Shown: positions 50,084-55,759 of the stretch, in pieces
How positions within the stretch are numbered: position 1 is the stretch's first letter
Layout: the number at the start of each line of letters is the position of its first letter
Assembly (NCBI GenBank): GCA_963840935.1
Contig: CAWJAS010000001.1
Coordinates: 45,902-109,901 of the forward strand
Origin: Candidatus Magasanikiibacteriota bacterium
GTDB lineage: Bacteria; Patescibacteriota; Patescibacteriia; Magasanikbacterales; GWA2-37-8
DNA: 64,000 nucleotides
Reading direction: 5' to 3'
Position numbers and translations under genes: made by a program
The notes under the pieces: generated by a model
The model's input: the letters and a program-made list of their open reading frames with translations, nothing else
Database searches by the model: none
What the model was told of the DNA's origin: nothing

Positions 50084-53047
50084 ATGGGGAGGGAGAAATT
50101 ATTTATTTCGGCCGTTATTTTAATTACGGGCGTTTTTTTATTTTACGCGGACGCGCGGGCAGAAGAAGTGTGCGTCACATCAACCGGTTGGGGCAGTGTT
50201 CGGCTCAATGAAATCAGTTCTTATTCATCAAGTAATGATTGGGTTGAGCTGTACAATATTTTGGATGTCTGCGTTAATTTGGATGGTTTGAAATTGTGGG
50301 ACAGCGGAGTGTCGTCTGCCATGCGAGTGCTCACGGGTGATATTTTTGCCCACGGGTTTTTGAATGTTAGCGTGAGTAATCGACTGGGTCGTGATGCTGA
50401 TAGTGTTGTTTTGAAAAATGAGGATAATGAATTGGATCGTTTTGATTATGGCACTTCGGAATTTCCGGCTCCGGAAGAAAATGAAGTTTGGGCGCGTGAA
50501 ATTGATGGACTAGGAGATTGGAAAATTACTATTGAATCCACCGAAGGGTCGGCGAATTCGATCGTGACCCCGATTATTGATCCGACTTCTACTCCACCCA
50601 TCGACCCACCAACAACTACTCCTCCGGTCGATCCGCCGACTTCCACTCCGCCTACGAGTACGCCCCCTATTGACCCTCCCACTACCACGCCGACTTCAAC
50701 ACCACCTGTCGACCCGCCAACAACCACTCCAACATCTTCGCTGGTGATTGATTGGGCGATGATTAAAATAAATGAATTTGTATCAAATCCGACATCGGAC
50801 AATGAGTGGGTGGAATTATATAATTTATCTAGTGACGATACTGATTTGACAGGCGCCGTAATTTGCGACAATCGCGAAACCGGATGCAAAAGCATTGCCG
50901 GAACGATTCTGGCAAACAGCTGGTTTTATTTTGACTTGCTTTCAACGAGTTTTTTGAATAATGACGGCGATAGTGTGATTTTAAAAAATTCAGAGTACGA
51001 AATAATAGACCGCGTTGATTATGATTCAGTTGGCGCGCCAAAAAAAGGGGAATCATTGGCAAGAACAGTTGATGGTATCGGTGAATTTGCCCGGACCACG
51101 CAATTAACGCAAGGCACGGCCAATGTGATTGTGCCACCGGTGGTTGTGGGTTCCGGCGGTTCTTCAAATCAATCGGTAATAAATATTCCTGAAGACGAAA
51201 CGGCAACAACCACCTGTGAATCGCAAAAAGTATATATAAACGAACTTTATCCGAACCCATTCGGGTCTGATTCGAATGACGAGTTTATTGAAATAATAAA
51301 TTTATCTTCCTCAACAATTAATTTGGACGGATGGAAGCTGGCCGACACGGCGCAAAGTTTTGTTTTATCCGGTGTAATTAATCCCGGTCAAATTTTATTT
51401 TGGAAAAGAGCGGAAACAAAAATCGCTCTGAATAACACGGCCAAAGAAACAATTAAATTATTTGATTCAAAAAAATGCGAAATTGATTCTGTTTCATATG
51501 ATAAGGCGGATGAGGGCGAAAGTTTATTGCGCGACGAGGCGGGGGAGTATTTTTGGACAAATCGACCAACACCGGGTGAAGAAAATGTTTATATTCAAAA
51601 AGATAACGGAATTGTTTGGAAAGTAAGATACCCGTTGAATGGCATAGTCGGGGAAAATGTTGTTTTTGACACCGAAGACAGCGCCGACGACCGTGGAGGC
51701 GAAATAATTTTTGATTGGGATTTTGGAGATAACTCCACTTCAAGTGGGGCGATTGTTTCACATGTTTTTTCTCGCTCCGGCGAATACCAAATATTGTTGT
51801 TTGCTTCAAGCACAAATGGCAGTCGTGGCTCAAAAACAATGAGCATAAATATCAGCGCACCGATGGTTGGTGTTAATAATATTATTATTAACGAAATTTT
51901 TGCCAATCCTTTGGGTACTGACGAAAAGGAGTTTATTGAAATTTTTAATTCAGGTGAAAACGATGAGGATTTGAGCGGATGGATAATTCGATCTGGCAGT
52001 GGCGCGCCTTTTGCTTTGCCCGAAGGCGCCATGATTGGAGCGAAAAATTATTTAGTTTTTTACAAAACCGCGACAAAAATTTCCATTAATAACACTTCAG
52101 ACACTATTTCTTTGATAAATGGAGATAACCAAATAGTTGATATGGTTCGAATAGGCAAGAGTGCGACTGATGAAAGCTACGCGTTTGTGAACGGAGAGTG
52201 GAAATGGAGCAGTCCGACACCGGGTGGCGAGAACATTATTGAAAATTTGATAGTTGCGAATGTACCAATTTCAAGCGCGAAAAAAATCACCACTTATCCG
52301 TTTGTGAATATAATAACAGCTCGTCAAATGGATAAAGACGACGGAGTAAAAACAAAGGGCGTGGTTACGGTTTTACCGCAAATGTTTGGTAAACAATATT
52401 TTTACATTTTTGATGGGATAAGTGGTATTCAAATTTATCAATATCAAGGCAAATTTCCAGCGTTAAAGATTGGCGATTTGGTGGAAGTCAAAGGAATTTT
52501 ATCTGAAGCGAGTGGGATAAAAAGAATAAAGTTAAAAAATGAAAAAGAAGTTGATATATTGGAGATAGAAATGAATTTGCCGCCGATAAATCTTCAGAGT
52601 GGAGAAATAAGTGAAGAGTATTTGGGCGCGCTCGTAAAAGTTGAGGGCGAGATTACGTCCAAAAAAACGAATTTTATTTATATTGATGACGGACAGGGTG
52701 AAGTAAAAATATATTTTAAACAAAACGCCAAAATTGATAAAAGTGTTTTGAAAGAAGGCGGACGTGCCAGTGTGGTTGGTATTTTGGAAATTAACGCCGG
52801 TGAAATAACGATTTTACCGCGTTTGCCTGAAGATGTGGTTGTGGCCGTAGATAATGAATTAATGATGCCAATTGAAAATAATGGTGCGGAAGAAATAAGT
52901 TCAGGCAAAGAAACCGCGGAAAAATATTTAACTGCCACCGCCGGTGGTTTGACCGCTTTGATTTTGGGTTTTTTGAGTAGGGCGCGAGGGATGGCTCTGC
53001 TTGGGTTAATAAAAAAAGTTGCCGTTAAATTAATTACTCGAGTATAA
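50084..53047 (+). CDS. large secreted protein with repeated lamin-tail-domain (LTD) modules, Pro/Thr linker, PKD-like domain and C-terminal membrane anchor
   Basis: Four modules with the NE(I/L)xxNP...EWVELYN...LxGWKL pattern; TPPxDPPTTTP linker; C-terminal hydrophobic helix. Confidence 0.65.
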   Translation: MGREKLFISAVILITGVFLFYADARAEEVCVTSTGWGSVRLNEISSYSSSNDWVELYNILDVCVNLDGLKLWDSGVSSAMRVLTGDIFAHGFLNVSVSNRLGRDADSVVLKNEDNELDRFDYGTSEFPAPEENEVWAREIDGLGDWKITIESTEGSANSIVTPIIDPTSTPPIDPPTTTPPVDPPTSTPPTSTPPIDPPTTTPTSTPPVDPPTTTPTSSLVIDWAMIKINEFVSNPTSDNEWVELYNLSSDDTDLTGAVICDNRETGCKSIAGTILANSWFYFDLLSTSFLNNDGDSVILKNSEYEIIDRVDYDSVGAPKKGESLARTVDGIGEFARTTQLTQGTANVIVPPVVVGSGGSSNQSVINIPEDETATTTCESQKVYINELYPNPFGSDSNDEFIEIINLSSSTINLDGWKLADTAQSFVLSGVINPGQILFWKRAETKIALNNTAKETIKLFDSKKCEIDSVSYDKADEGESLLRDEAGEYFWTNRPTPGEENVYIQKDNGIVWKVRYPLNGIVGENVVFDTEDSADDRGGEIIFDWDFGDNSTSSGAIVSHVFSRSGEYQILLFASSTNGSRGSKTMSINISAPMVGVNNIIINEIFANPLGTDEKEFIEIFNSGENDEDLSGWIIRSGSGAPFALPEGAMIGAKNYLVFYKTATKISINNTSDTISLINGDNQIVDMVRIGKSATDESYAFVNGEWKWSSPTPGGENIIENLIVANVPISSAKKITTYPFVNIITARQMDKDDGVKTKGVVTVLPQMFGKQYFYIFDGISGIQIYQYQGKFPALKIGDLVEVKGILSEASGIKRIKLKNEKEVDILEIEMNLPPINLQSGEISEEYLGALVKVEGEITSKKTNFIYIDDGQGEVKIYFKQNAKIDKSVLKEGGRASVVGILEINAGEITILPRLPEDVVVAVDNELMMPIENNGAEEISSGKETAEKYLTATAGGLTALILGFLSRARGMALLGLIKKVAVKLITRV

Positions 53048-53108: not shown

Positions 53109-53534
53109 CTAGCTCGCGGAAGCGAAACGGGCGCGCTCGTCGGCGCCGCAGATGCGCATGCGCAGGGGGCTGTCGTCCGGAATCCGGTCGAGCAGGCAGG
53201 TGAGCACGTTCACGGGTGCCTTGTGAACGAACTGGCGGAAGCTGAGCTTCCAGCGGATTCCGCGGGTGCCCTTGTACTCGACGAGGCCCGGGATGAGGTT
53301 GGCGGCCTTCTTCTTGTCCGCCTTCTTGGCGGCGCCCGTCATGGTGACCGGGTACACGAAGTCCCGGAAGAATGCCGTTTCCGACACCACGATTTCCACG
53401 CCCACATCGTCGATGACGATTTTGGGCTCGCTCGTGGGCAGAAGCATCTTCGTGAAGGCGCACGTCATCCGTGGGTTGGCCGTCGGCCCCTGTCTGCGGC
53501 TTTTCTGTTCGGGCCCGTTTGCTCGGTGCTTCAT
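53109..53534 (-). CDS. GC-rich orphan protein (hypothetical)
   Basis: AAAGGAGAGACGA RBS before ATG; promoter TTGACA, 17 bp spacer, TATTAT inside a palindromic region; other frames give low-complexity Arg/Gly/Pro products. Confidence 0.45.
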   Translation of the reverse strand: MKHRANGPEQKSRRQGPTANPRMTCAFTKMLLPTSEPKIVIDDVGVEIVVSETAFFRDFVYPVTMTGAAKKADKKKAANLIPGLVEYKGTRGIRWKLSFRQFVHKAPVNVLTCLLDRIPDDSPLRMRICGADERARFASAS

Positions 53535-53567
53535 TCGTCTCTCCTTTGTTGAGGTTTGAACCAAAAA

Positions 53568-53640
53568 GAACGCTGTCAAACTGACAACAAATAATATCAT
53601 ATTTAATACTATTTGTCAATTGATGACAGCGTTCTTATGT
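53568..53640 (-). promoter_or_regulatory. promoter embedded between perfect 11-bp inverted repeats GAACGCTGTCA / TGACAGCGTTC
   Basis: TTGACA and TATTAT hexamers lie inside the 48-bp segment between the inverted repeats; candidate operator. Confidence 0.45.
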
Positions 53641-53672
53641 TTTTATTACTTCGCCACTCCTTACTTCATTCG

Positions 53673-53689
53673 TCGGGGCGACAGGACTT
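53673..53689 (-). other. duplicated 3' fragment of tRNA-Pro (T-loop nt ~58 to discriminator)
   Basis: Minus-strand AAGTCCTGTCGCCCCGA matches the end of the tRNA at 53861-53934. Confidence 0.7.
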
Positions 53690-53860
53690 GGTCTCGGCTC
53701 TCGTCGGCTTCCGCCTCCTCGGCTCCCAAAGGGATCCCTTTGGGACTGACCACCGCCTCGCGGTTTGGTTAGCTCGCAAGCTCACCAAACATCGCTCCGG
53801 CGTTCAAATCCTGGCGCGAGCAAAACTATTTGCTCGCTTCGCCATTCCTCACTTCGTTCG
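53690..53860 (-). repeat. TAR element, Pro locus copy
   Basis: 5' box CGAACGAAGTGAGGAATGGCGAAGCGAGC, hairpin GCGAGCAAATAGTTTTGCTCGC, core GGATTTGAACGCCGGAGCGATGTTTGGTGAGCTTGCGAGCTAACCAAACCGCGAGGCGGTGG, hairpin, 3' box. Confidence 0.7.
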
Positions 53861-53934
53861 TCGGGGCGACAGGACTTGAACCTGCGACCTTCTGCTCCCA
53901 AAGCAGACGCTCTAGCCAACTGAGCTACGCCCCG
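53861..53934 (-). tRNA. tRNA-Pro(TGG)
   Basis: Cloverleaf by eye; anticodon loop TTTGGGA; acceptor CGGGGCG/CGCCCCG. Confidence 0.85.
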
Positions 53935-54026
53935 GGACTTCGTGTTGTCTGTTAACAACACTACGCCCCGTAAACTAAAGTTGTTTACAGGGCGTAGTCC
54001 CAACCAATGGTTGGGACAAAGACCTG

Positions 54027-54098
54027 TGCCGAGGGCGAGGATTGAACTCGCGACGCAAGGATTTTCAGTCCTTCGCTCTACCACTGAGCTACCTCGGC
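54027..54098 (-). tRNA. tRNA-Phe(GAA)
   Basis: GCCGAGGTAGCTCAGTGGTAGAGC...; anticodon loop CTGAAAA; T-arm GAGTTCAATCCTC. Confidence 0.88.
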
Positions 54099-54258
54099 TT
54101 CGCTACGCTACGCCGAGTAAACCTCGGCTTTTCCATACATTACGCCGAGTAAACCTCGGCTTTTCCATACATTACGCCGAGTAAACCTCGGCTTTTCCAT
54201 ACATTACGCCGAGTAAACCTCGGCTTTTCCATACACTACGCCGAGTAAACCTCGGCTT
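54099..54258 (-). repeat. five tandem 32-bp direct repeats each retaining the first 8 nt of tRNA-Phe (GCCGAGGT) plus a hairpin
   Basis: Minus-strand unit GCCGAGGTTTACTCGGCGTAATGTATGGAAAA, head-to-tail with no spacers, directly 5' of the tRNA. Confidence 0.8.
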
Positions 54259-54265
54259 TTTCGTT

Positions 54266-54514
54266 TTACAACGAAAAAATTAAATGTTTATTTCGGAACG
54301 CTCGACCAGAATTGGATTTTAGATATTGTTCAAAATTAGCAGCTAATTTTTTATTTGGAAAACAGGCGTAAAAAATTAATTTTAAAGGCCTGAGATGTTT
54401 TGTGCATATATTTTTTCCAGCGATGTGCTCGCAAATCCTTCTTCGAATGTTAGTTGTAAATCCTGTATAGTATTGTTGGTTATTGCATTTTAAAATATAT
54501 GTATAATATAGCAT
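54266..54514 (-). CDS. GIY-YIG domain-only protein (YhbQ/UPF0213-like)
   Basis: MLYYTYILKC...YYTGFTTNIRRRICEH matches the GIY-(10 aa)-YIG-Arg-Glu/His pattern; 82 aa. Confidence 0.7.
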   Translation of the reverse strand: MLYYTYILKCNNQQYYTGFTTNIRRRICEHIAGKNICTKHLRPLKLIFYACFPNKKLAANFEQYLKSNSGRAFRNKHLIFSL

Positions 54515-54593
54515 GTATAAGATAGTAAACTAAGGTAAAACAATTAAACAATCAAGTTTACAGGGCGTATCCGCCTTTGGCGGAGAAGCCCTG

Positions 54594-54666
54594 TGGACCG
54601 ACGGGGATTCGAACCCCGGACCTCCGCGTTGCAAACGCGGCGCTCTACCAACTAAGCTATCGGCCC
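54594..54666 (-). tRNA. tRNA-Ala(TGC)
   Basis: G3:U70; anticodon loop TTTGCAA; T-arm GGGGTTCGAATCCCC. Confidence 0.88.
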
Positions 54667-54697
54667 GTTTAATAGGTTTTTGAATCCGACATCTAGT

Positions 54698-54730
54698 TCA
54701 CAAAAAGTAAAAAAATTATACCACAATTAA
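54698..54730 (-). promoter_or_regulatory. extended -10 promoter (TTGACT...TGGTATAAT) for tRNA-Ala(TGC), overlapping a divergent plus-strand promoter
   Basis: Consensus hexamers on the minus strand about 30 bp upstream of the tRNA 5' end. Confidence 0.5.
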
Positions 54731-54799
54731 CAAAAAAGTCAATAAATGGTATAATCACAAATATTAACCGTGCGTTGCGCGGGATAATTAATTATTTAT

Positions 54800-55759
54800 A
54801 TGGTTAACAATGTCGGGGCGGGTGAGAAAGCTTCGCCAAAACATGTTTTTCTGCATTTATTCGTCATAATAATGCTGTATTTTAGCGCGGTTAATTTTTT
54901 GATATTGCTTTTTCAATATATCAATTATTTTATCACCGACGAGCTGTATAAAACCGATTATTATCAAATGATGTTTAGTTTCGGCTTGATAAGGTTCGCC
55001 TTGGCTTCATTAATTATCGTTTTTCCCATTTTTATTTTTACTTCCCGTTATTTAAACAAAAGTTACACAAAAAGCCCGGCCATTCGTGAAATGAGAACAA
55101 GAAAATGGCTTATTTACTTCACTCTTTTTGTGGCATCGCTCATAATGGTCGGCGACCTTGTCAGAATAATTCTTACTTTCCTTGAAGGTGAGATGACAGT
55201 TCGTTTTATTCTTAAAGCTCTGTCAATTTTATTCGTAACCGGCTTGGTTTTTTACTATTATTTGTGTGATTTAAAAAAAGAAGAAAAAGCTCATCCAGAA
55301 ATCAAATATTTTGTTTGGGGTATTATCGTGGTGGTTTTAGCCACAATTATTGCCGGCTTTTTTATTGTCGGTTCGCCAAAAAATGAACGACTTCGCCGAT
55401 TTGACTATGAGCGATTAGGCCGTTTGCAAGAGATACAAGGCCAAGTTATTAATTATTGGCGCAGTAAAGAATATTTGCCGGTTACATTAACAGATTTAAA
55501 TGATGAAATTAGCGGTTTTGTGGCGCCTGTTGACCCGGAAACAAATGAGCCGTTTGAATATCGCATAATTGAACCGGATAAATTTGAATTGTGCGCGAAG
55601 TTTAATTTACCAAGTGAAGAAGACGAAGTGAAATATTATTCGGAACCGATGTATTACGGAAAACCCAATTCTGAAAACTGGAAACATGAAGCAGGCAGAG
55701 TTTGTTTTGAAAGAAAAATCGATAAGGAACTTTATCCCCCTTATCCGGAAAAAAATTAA
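54800..55759 (+). CDS. hypothetical integral membrane protein
   Basis: 319 aa; about six TM helices followed by a soluble C-terminal domain. Confidence 0.5.
   Translation: MVNNVGAGEKASPKHVFLHLFVIIMLYFSAVNFLILLFQYINYFITDELYKTDYYQMMFSFGLIRFALASLIIVFPIFIFTSRYLNKSYTKSPAIREMRTRKWLIYFTLFVASLIMVGDLVRIILTFLEGEMTVRFILKALSILFVTGLVFYYYLCDLKKEEKAHPEIKYFVWGIIVVVLATIIAGFFIVGSPKNERLRRFDYERLGRLQEIQGQVINYWRSKEYLPVTLTDLNDEISGFVAPVDPETNEPFEYRIIEPDKFELCAKFNLPSEEDEVKYYSEPMYYGKPNSENWKHEAGRVCFERKIDKELYPPYPEKN

Follow-up and report, generated by a model that had tools for sequence, protein, structure and literature searches.

A tandem array of hairpin modules between tRNA genes as the probable end of a small mobile GIY-YIG cassette

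Introduction

Genes for GIY-YIG nucleases are known to occur among tRNA genes. In bacteriophage T4, SegB is a free-standing GIY-YIG homing endonuclease whose gene lies inside the tRNA gene cluster (PMC2330249). Here we describe a bacterial locus that resembles it, on a stretch of 64,000 nucleotides of contig CAWJAS010000001.1 from a Candidatus Magasanikiibacteriota bacterium (the whole stretch is called the window below), where a short GIY-YIG open reading frame (ORF) and a tandem array of five hairpin units lie between a tRNA-Ala and a tRNA-Phe gene. We propose that the array is probably the terminal hairpin module of a small mobile GIY-YIG cassette lying between tRNA genes, amplified by slippage. 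Like the SegB gene, the ORF is a GIY-YIG gene among tRNA genes that is present in some relatives and absent from others. SegB is inherited together with the flanking tRNA region via nuclease-initiated repair, a route that the cassette in the window might share. The two differ in that SegB belongs to the I-TevI-like branch, has a DNA-binding part, is a phage gene and lacks bracketing hairpin modules, whereas the window cassette encodes a bare SLX1/UPF0213 catalytic domain of 82 amino acids (aa), is chromosomal and is almost absent from phage records.

The sequence profile and the predicted fold of the window protein are shared with the UPF0213 proteins (1zg2, 1ywl) and with eukaryotic Slx1-Slx4. 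Slx1 cuts branched and stem-loop DNA, and additionally requires a RING domain and Slx4. A survey of the superfamily from 2006 described its bacterial members as minimal, vertically inherited and housekeeping, recorded no more than a fusion with a tRNA methyltransferase, and made no mention of tRNA gene boundaries, flanking hairpin modules or mobility (PMC1564403). Our literature search, which was of incomplete coverage, turned up T4 SegB and this survey only, with no tRNA-linked bacterial cassette and no such module; the cassette family and its covarying module are apparently undescribed.

As hairpins, the modules recall three other systems, namely the repetitive extragenic palindromic (REP) elements with their REP-associated tyrosine transposases (RAYT), the ends of IS200/IS605 elements and the attC sites of integrons. 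All are short and imperfect hairpins in which a few unpaired bases are conserved while the stems vary freely and covary; they lie beside the gene of the presumed enzyme and are also found as gene-less copies and in clusters. In place of a GIY-YIG nuclease, these systems use HUH or tyrosine recombinases, and to our knowledge REP elements, IS200/IS605 ends and attC sites are not anchored at tRNA gene ends.

Results and discussion

The array between the GIY-YIG ORF and tRNA-Phe

Read on the minus strand, the locus consists of a promoter-like site, tRNA-Ala(tgc) (54593..54666, 73.7 bits), the 82-aa GIY-YIG ORF (54266..54514), an A/T-rich hairpin, the five-unit array, tRNA-Phe(gaa) (54026..54098, 72.5 bits), a 91-nt spacer and tRNA-Pro(tgg) (53860..53934). 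This confirms the order of ORF, hairpin, five repeats and tRNA-Phe that had been read from the DNA letters alone in an earlier note (the original prediction). The hairpin, TTTTTCGTTGTAAAACGAAAAA, was read in the sequence over the ORF stop codon (54262..54285, minus strand), and two of our comparison loci, L008 and L009, have it too. The array of 3' terminal modules occupies 54099..54260 on the minus strand, according to Tandem Repeats Finder, a covariance model of the module (R1, see below) and direct reading; the Tandem Repeats Finder call itself covers 54109-54260, with a period of 32, 4.8 copies, 99% matches and a score of 297. Unit 1 is GCCGAGGTTTACTCGGCGTAGTGTATGGAAAA and ends in GTAGTGTATGGAAAA (54256-54225), units 2-4 are three identical copies ending in GTAATGTATGGAAAA (54224-54193, 54192-54161 and 54160-54129), and unit 5, which adjoins tRNA-Phe, has 30 nt and ends in GTAGCGTAGCGAA (54128-54099), all on the minus strand. 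The claim of five 32-bp repeats, each beginning with the first 8 nt of the tRNA, holds for these beginnings: GCCGAGGT occurs only six times on both strands of the window, in the five units and at the start of tRNA-Phe, which opens with GCCGAGGTAGCTCAG. It does not hold for the uniformity of the repeats, as the first and last differ and the last is shorter.

Each unit is made up of GCCGAG, GTTTA and CTCGGC followed by a loop GTA..(G)AA, and the stem of the last module closes on nt 1-6 of tRNA-Phe, which are thereby the 3' arm of the adjacent module. The tight hairpin within a unit, GCCGAG-GTTTA-CTCGGC, is predicted at -12 kcal/mol, and the whole array folded as a single strand at -37.3 kcal/mol (z = -5.4 against shuffles). 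In its build the array resembles a minisatellite, with head-to-tail units that are 99% identical and framed by GCCGAGGT, and with a copy number that differs among relatives, as judged between species. A CRISPR-like array was considered and rejected; the units are contiguous, the period equals the unit length and there are no unique spacers.

A sigma-70-like site upstream of tRNA-Ala (54715..54742, minus strand; TTGACT, 16 nt, TATAAT, with a TG; 11 of 12 matches) is, going by its sequence, likely the promoter of the entire tRNA-Ala/GIY-YIG/tRNA-Phe/tRNA-Pro unit. TTGACT and -10-like hexamers, read by eye, likewise stand upstream of tRNA-Ala in L007, L008, L102 and L103. The window is bacterial chromosome, with PolA, H+-PPase and a class A penicillin-binding protein, and the closest relatives of its cassette come from Patescibacteria. 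The neighbouring DUF5671 protein was found on two Logan contigs, both of which end about 170 nt upstream of its gene, the position of the tRNA-Ala gene.

The unit as a covarying hairpin module

The pairing of GCCGAG with CTCGGC inside each repeat, put forward in the original prediction, can indeed fold, but from its sequence the unit is better read in another register, as GTTTA, a 5' arm CTCGGC, a loop GTA..GAA and a 3' arm GCCGAG. Parsed in this way, and by comparison with related sequences, each unit contains a structured hairpin module in one complete copy, and tRNA-Phe itself supplies the 3' arm of the last one. The comparison drew on about 100 loci from scans of metagenome and genome collections and on about 100 distinct modules from a pattern search. 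In general, the module has an outer stem of 5-9 bp, the sequence of which differs widely between modules, an internal loop in which 5' G(T/A)A faces GAA 3', and an inner stem of variable length that starts with GC, ends with GC and carries a small loop. GCTTG (GTTTA in the window) often precedes the 5' arm on the side that faces the ORF.

The syntenic relatives have GCCGAG, a short linker, CTCGGC and GTAG in common while their loops vary, and the unit adjoining the tRNA ends in GTAGC..AGCGAA in every one of them. Elsewhere the same loop is found within other stems: CCTGGC-GTAGCTTTAGCGAA-GTCAGG before tRNA-Thr in a Magasanikbacteria genome (L002), CAGGGC-TTCGCTAAAGCTAC-GCCCTG as the reverse complement right after tRNA-Ala in L008 and L009, GCACTGC/GCAGTGC in L023, CTCTCC/GGAGAG before tRNA-Phe in L035 and ACCCGCC/GGCGGGT after tRNA-Ser in L015. 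The module adjoins tRNA-Thr, Gly, Met, Ile, Gln and Ser and the transfer-messenger RNA (tmRNA) gene, with very different and covarying stems. Covariation was measured on 56 instances chosen by a 14-nt loop pattern alone, with pairing counted in the seven flanking positions. Among the stem cells 90.4% were paired, against 72.3% after shuffling (none of 500 shuffles reached 90.4%) and 32-51% when the partners were slid against each other; 89 were altered on both sides (25.7 shuffled, 9-32 slid), and the covariation score was 0.468 (0.151 shuffled, 0.08-0.12 slid). Elsewhere in the window the loop pattern is matched twice by chance, and neither match has stems.

Two further sites in the window carry modules. 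The 5' terminal module of the cassette (54556..54592, plus strand, thus in the orientation opposite to the tRNAs) begins immediately past the discriminator base of tRNA-Ala and reads, in its own orientation, GTTTAC-AGGGC-GTA-TCCGCC-TTT-GGCGGA-GAA-GCCCT; it is predicted to fold into an outer stem, a 3x3 internal loop and an inner hairpin (z -3.4 to -4.2). The spacer between tRNA-Phe and tRNA-Pro (53935..54025, minus strand) is an ORF-less pair of modules, a miniature cassette consisting of an inverted module CAGGTC..GCCCTG, then TAAAC-AACTTTA-GTTTAC, and a forward module CGGGGC-GTA-GTGTTGTTAACAGACAACAC-GAA-GTCCCG, the final 2 nt of which are nt 1-2 of tRNA-Pro; its module folds have z values of -3.7 to -5.5. 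Taken over all modules of the window, the predicted folds have one common shape (z -3.4 to -5.5).

R1 was run across the 64-kb window with filters off, and four of its five best matches fall inside 53928-54598. The unit adjoining tRNA-Phe comes first (27 bits, E 8e-6), the inverted module after tRNA-Ala second (16.9 bits, E 0.011), and an inner array unit scores 16.1 bits and the module before tRNA-Pro 13 bits (53928-53975); the match outside this region is a palindrome at 62121-62144 (15.6 bits). Rfam 15 at gathering thresholds returned only the tRNAs and no family that fits the module or the array, and a search of 53400-54800 at E up to 5 gave nothing credible.

Some modules look like parts of tRNAs. 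The loops GTAGCTCGTAGAGCGAAG (L013, 109-139) and GTAGCTCGGAGAGCGAA (L100, 1073-1103) resemble a tRNA D-arm with a shortened loop, such as that of tRNA-Phe in the window (GTAGCTCAGTGGTAGAGCGAAG, 54092-54071), and the 5' arm of the module before tRNA-Pro together with GTAG equals nt 1-10 of tRNA-Pro. On such sequence likeness, the module may descend from the 5' part of a tRNA.

Placement of the modules at tRNA ends

At 12 loci within tRNA clusters, inverted modules begin 0-3 nt before the upstream tRNA ends. Forward modules extend with their 7-nt 3' arm into the downstream tRNA at 9 sites, by 1-2 nt in ARAGORN coordinates or by 2-3 nt when the sequences are read. In L025 and in the group of the window, the overlap with the downstream tRNA amounts to 6 nt. 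It is because of this 6-nt overlap in the lineage that the arm in the array equals nt 1-6 of tRNA-Phe and that the 8-mer is shared. At L083 a module in the ordinary register stands before an identical tRNA-Phe 5' sequence, and the 6-nt register is therefore a derived state. L026 is in the usual register too. The Bacteroidota follow another arrangement, in which the forward module starts 4-5 nt past a tmRNA, tRNA-Ser or tRNA-Ala gene (15 loci) and is often followed by a T run, then by the ORF and the inverted module, with a 17-nt copy of the tRNA or tmRNA 3' end added at nine loci.

Whichever strand carries the module, its loop sequence is kept in the module's own orientation. The same seems true for mismatched stem pairs: read in the orientation of the module, G.T outnumbers A.C by 19:2 in forward modules and by 10:3 in inverted modules. 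Since both loop and G.T bias follow the orientation of the module, these sequence data point to recognition of the module as DNA rather than within the tRNA transcript, with small numbers for the inverted modules.

In L011 and L025, the GIY-YIG frame reads through the module and stops at a TAG contributed by tRNA positions 8-10, which gives the protein a tail such as ..AEPARRSEVKPR.

A bare GIY-YIG domain under purifying selection

The 82-aa ORF matches PF01541 with 62.8 bits (cut-off 22.6; E 3.8e-17), and its motif tyrosines (Y6, Y16), arginine (R26), His/Tyr position (H30) and metal-binding glutamate (E62) are invariant in 11 homologues. Profile comparison with the PDB gave 1zg2 (E 2.4e-17), 1ywl (7e-10) and SLX1 (1e-4). 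The predicted structure (predicted local distance difference test, pLDDT, 81) has a beta-beta-alpha-beta-alpha core, for which Foldseek returned 1zg2 at 9e-6, Slx1 in several Slx1-Slx4 entries at 2e-3 to 3e-2, and the I-TevI catalytic domain only at 1.4. Profile and fold being nearer to 1zg2 and Slx1 than to I-TevI, the protein is, as judged from sequence and model, a bare domain of the SLX1/UPF0213 branch and not a member of the classical homing endonuclease branch. Indeed, with 82 aa and a single domain it does not have the I-TevI-type architecture of a catalytic and a DNA-binding domain, and the NCBIfam model of group I intron endonucleases does not match it.

By the ratio of nonsynonymous to synonymous substitutions (dN/dS), the ORF is under purifying selection as far as these alignments can tell. 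Compared with L007, L008 and L009, the window ORF gives values of 0.09-0.13 (0.13 against L007, 0.10 against L008), the pair L008-L009 gives 0.11 at a dS of 0.19, and the overall range is 0.09-0.28; pairs with L025 were discounted owing to a one-codon offset in the ungapped comparison. The family is large, with 20,505 clusters at 50% identity matching the profile at E up to 1e-3 and 3,178 at 1e-10. Phage records yielded eight weak matches only, all below 40% identity, and an exact look-up of the 82-aa sequence found no match.

Presence and absence of the cassette

A tRNA or tmRNA gene lies within 250 nt of the ORF in 54 of the 80 best genome loci, in one case on the opposite strand, so the linkage to tRNA genes reported for the window extends to other genomes. 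Presence or absence at one and the same site, as in homing genes, is seen when species (not strains) are compared. The spacer between tRNA-Ile and tRNA-Met is empty in some genomes (14, 39 or 119 nt, with no module pair noted) and contains the ORF in others (309-343 nt), with no ORF-less pair seen. Between tRNA-Met and tRNA-Phe it is either empty (14 or 49 nt), or filled by an ORF-less module pair (93 nt, L076) or by the ORF (312-361 nt); between tRNA-Phe and tRNA-Pro the same three states have 12-20 nt, 91 nt (the window) and 312 nt (L054). Two or three cassettes can share a single tRNA cluster (L038, L054 and L058). The cassettes occur in Patescibacteria, in Bacteroidota and in metagenome-assembled genomes labelled Gammaproteobacteria; one culturable host is Flagellimonas, which has a homologue beside tmRNA (L040-L045).

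The ends of the cassette are inverted repeats in the sense that modules are inverted around the ORF (window, L008, L026, L083, L015, L081, L082 and L088). We found no target-site duplication of fixed length, and many cassettes lack any flanking duplication. Where there is one, it is a piece of tRNA, of 8, 10, 15, 17, 26 or 71 nt at 5' ends and of 17-20 nt at 3' ends, and such partial copies break in the T-loop or after the D-arm. The 5' copies include 8 and 26 nt of tRNA-Val (L002), 17 nt of tRNA-Pro (L008), and 15 nt (L019) and 71 nt (window) of tRNA-Ser. At nine loci (L015, L042, L074, L081, L082, L088, L093, L050 and L101), the last 17-20 nt of tRNA-Ser, tRNA-Glu or tmRNA, from the T-loop onwards, are copied on the far side of the cassette. 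No transposase of a known family is encoded; the GIY-YIG domain is the only ORF of the cassette. On sequence comparison, the finding of identical tRNA-tRNA spacers in empty or filled form, depending on the genome, favours a mobile element, in keeping with the tRNA-associated mobile function that had been suggested from the window alone.

The ORF-less module pairs that fill tRNA spacers are reminiscent of miniature inverted-repeat transposable elements, from which the cassette differs by lacking a fixed target-site duplication and a transposase, and by ending in hairpins instead of plain inverted repeats. The tRNA 3' copies at the far side recall the integrative elements that target tRNA and tmRNA genes and duplicate their 3' part; here the difference is that the cassette has about 330 nt, a GIY-YIG nuclease as its sole gene and no integrase.

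Several loci hold more than one ORF or a remnant: L038 has three different GIY-YIG ORFs in and beside one tRNA cluster (724-1879), L063 (1201-1754) and L065 (1201-1848) have near-identical GIY-YIG ORFs in tandem after tmRNA, and L019 has a decayed C-terminal ORF remnant after tRNA-Ser (1256-1366).

Origin of the array

Unit number was compared across relatives at syntenic loci with tRNA-Ala, the GIY-YIG ORF, units and tRNA-Phe, and it is not invariant. L007, L011 and L025 have one unit, L102 has one and a decayed one, L009 has two, L008 three and the window five; L103 has at least one before its contig ends. Arrays of module-sized units are also found at the cassette ends of about a dozen of 93 loci. 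Examples follow tRNA-Ser in L042 (860-1099, period 27 nt, 7-8.5 copies) and tRNA-Phe in L026 (1608-1747, period 35 nt, 4 copies, 100% identical), lie upstream of tmRNA in L072 (111-249, period 31 nt, 4.5 copies) and of tRNA-Lys in L029 (8-125, period 36 nt, 3.3 copies), and stand between tRNA-Tyr and the ORF in L023 (period 30 nt, 2.8 copies); L007 and L009 have repeated 5' modules as well. The array in the window thus exemplifies a general tendency that does not depend on tRNA-Phe.

We therefore favour, as the most probable of the explanations considered and with some confidence, a slippage-amplified terminal hairpin module of a small mobile cassette. In this reading the GIY-YIG ORF and its flanks form a cassette lodged in the tRNA-Ala/tRNA-Phe spacer, bounded by two inverted copies of the module whose outer ends touch the ends of the neighbouring tRNA genes. 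An extra GCCGAGGT lies upstream of the module, so that a direct repeat of 8 bp, to which the start of the tRNA contributes one copy, frames the 30-32-nt module. Both this frame and the tight hairpin of each unit favour slippage, and the three identical inner units point to a recent expansion, so that replication slippage or unequal recombination could have produced the five units. The cassette itself may have spread by nuclease-initiated repair with the conserved tRNA genes as homology arms, the modules perhaps being read as DNA hairpins or cruciforms by a structure-specific nuclease, and the array might have no function of its own. The earlier suggestions of an iterated duplication, and of its position at the boundary of a GIY-YIG element, are both supported.

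Several points weigh against this explanation. The copy number of the 152-bp array comes from assembled sequence, and the count of five could reflect the assembly. All comparisons are between species, at a protein identity of 76% or less, and all comparison loci were selected via the nuclease, which means that the link between module and nuclease is seen in nuclease-bearing loci only. To match tRNA-Phe, the 5' arm had to depart from the usual register at about six bases, which this explanation does not account for. Equilibrium folds predict that the pairing probability of the tRNA-Phe acceptor falls from 1.0 to 0.08 with the anti-acceptor arm and to 0.02-0.05 with one unit or the array. Since module and array compete with the acceptor stem, it cannot be taken for granted that an array beside an essential tRNA gene is neutral; on this modelling, the array may carry a cost, or may rely on co-transcriptional folding to be harmless. 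The strand test on inverted modules draws on 13 mismatched pairs only, the forward module after tRNA-Ser or tmRNA in Bacteroidota, followed by its T run, looks terminator-like, and the module stems could be kept for an RNA function in the tRNA transcript.

We also considered whether extra copies of GCCGAGG could shield the tRNA by trapping the CUCGGC arm. This idea found no support in the equilibrium folds, where acceptor pairing was not restored.

The alternative that survives best, which we nonetheless regard as unlikely, is an RNA leader or processing element, in which the modules act in the transcript of the tRNA operon and the array tunes their effect. In one variant the hairpins, flush with the tRNAs, would let RNase P and RNase Z excise the nuclease mRNA and would protect both its ends; in another, the modules would tune the maturation of tRNA-Phe through competition with the acceptor stem. 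The predicted strong interaction with the acceptor strand and the terminator-like module of Bacteroidota fit an RNA role, as do the ORF and neighbouring tRNAs being co-oriented in nearly all loci, modules lying 0-4 nt from tRNA ends, flush with the processing sites, and the 19 to 2 tolerance of G.U-type pairs in forward modules. However, the loop is conserved even where it is antisense to the transcript and the RNA would read UUC..UAC instead of GUA..GAA, and the inverted modules keep G.T over A.C in their own orientation (10 versus 3). Moreover, the number of units is not conserved, the loops of the inner units are degenerate, and in the equilibrium folds further units restore no acceptor pairing.

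A less probable alternative, and in our view a rather doubtful one, is that the modules are iterated sites that dock the GIY-YIG nuclease or a host protein, similar to iterons, with their number under selection. The recurrence of arrays at cassette ends speaks for such sites, and the conserved internal loop suggests a specific ligand. The copy number runs from 1 to 8.5 without a preferred value, however, the identity of the three inner units points to recent expansion, and the loops of inner units stray from the consensus (16 versus 27 bits).

The original prediction had explained the array by repeated abortive duplications of the 5' end of tRNA-Phe, each diverted into a hairpin. Every unit does open with the first 8 nt of the tRNA, and genuine partial tRNA copies flank cassettes in the window, L002, L008 and L019, yet this origin seems very unlikely to us. 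Only 6-8 nt of a unit coincide with the tRNA, and the remaining 22-24 nt (GTTTA, CTCGGC and the loop GTAG..GAA) are the conserved module, which is seen with unrelated stems at other tRNAs; at L083 an ordinary-register module stands ahead of this very tRNA-Phe 5' sequence. We give hardly any credit to reiterated tRNA-Phe promoters on the tRNA strand, suggested by a TAATGT said to be in each unit and present in units 2-4, or to tandem terminators for the opposite strand, suggested by five flagged plus-strand hairpins of GCCGAGTAAACCTCGGC followed by TTTTCC, because the array has no promoter-like site on the tRNA strand (no sigma-70-like one among them) while a strong one lies upstream of tRNA-Ala, L008 and L009 conserve neither TAATGT nor the T run in their units, which read ...CGGCATTTCCC, and the array has no plus-strand gene directly before it, the nearest one ending at 53047.

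A wider proposal, which we put forward only tentatively and consider rather less probable than not being the case, starts from the slippage-amplified cassette and sees in it an undescribed class of bacterial mobile element, with a bare SLX1-like gene, folded-DNA modules read by the nuclease, and insertion precisely at tRNA and tmRNA ends, these conserved genes serving as landing sites and homology arms across phyla. The module would then be an acceptor-like stem with TAGC..GCGAA, resembling a collapsed tRNA acceptor and D-arm, and gene-less miniatures, tRNA fragments and module arrays would be by-products. Small stand-alone GIY-YIG proteins are very common and are treated as housekeeping proteins, with their role unknown. 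Here one GIY-YIG subfamily would behave as a selfish cassette in the spacers of tRNA operons and on the 3' side of tmRNA and tRNA-Ser genes. If true, the family gains a testable function, and odd tRNA fragments, long tRNA spacers and the tandem repeats that break short-read assemblies at tRNA clusters would be accounted for; a compact nuclease whose DNA or RNA partner is structured and defined would also become available. In genome annotation, arrays of this kind should be taken neither for promoters nor for pseudo-tRNAs or CRISPR-like repeats.

Other elements in the window

A second GIY-YIG ORF of a different subfamily lies on the plus strand (60069..60350; PF01541 E 2.3e-17) and ends inside tRNA-Ser(tga) (60314-60401, plus strand). 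The two GIY-YIG proteins of the window are 41% identical. They had been described as paralogues that both abut tRNAs; both are at tRNAs indeed, but they belong to different subfamilies and the flanks of the second hold no hairpin module, with R1 reaching only 7.7 bits at 60029-60061. Upstream of the second ORF is an exact copy of nt 1-71 of tRNA-Ser(tga), cut in the T-loop after GGGTTCG (59944..60014, plus strand). Between this copy and the ORF, 60015-60068 contains the hairpins CCACGGG..CCCGTGG and CGCCCCGAG-TTTAT-CTCGGGGCG, followed by AATCAATG. The same layout with a partial copy is seen at tRNA-Ala in L011, without an ORF in between.

Another repeated element, of about 140-190 nt and with the core GAACGCCGGAGCGATGTTTGGCGAGCTTG, is present in five copies, each just 3' of a tRNA: 400-600 (minus strand), 8890-9290 (minus strand, two copies), 53640-53862 (minus strand) and 60400-60600 (plus strand), with Ala-ggc, Arg-cct (twice), Pro and Ser-tga as the preceding tRNAs. 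It opens with a short hairpin, and four of the five copies end with the last 17-19 nt of their own tRNA, from the T-loop onwards. No Rfam family matches it, and by its sequence it looks like a miniature element inserted in the tRNA T-loop. A large serine recombinase (Resolvase, Recombinase, Zn_ribbon_recom) at about 60700-62087 on the minus strand adjoins tRNA-Ser(cga), and one sequence is repeated on both of its sides, near 60655-60720 and 62100-62200, which suggests an integrated element beside a tRNA.

In L008 (1871-2105) and L009 (1848-2082), a group I intron (RF00028, 72 bits) sits in the anticodon loop of tRNA-Phe and interrupts the gene, which is why ARAGORN missed both; tRNA-Phe of the window has no intron. 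Finally, between an LTD-domain gene and the tRNA cluster of the window, 53109-53600 has a G+C content of 0.47 against about 0.38 around it, with overlapping ORFs on both strands and with promoter-like and terminator-like sites of its own (53619-53571, minus strand).

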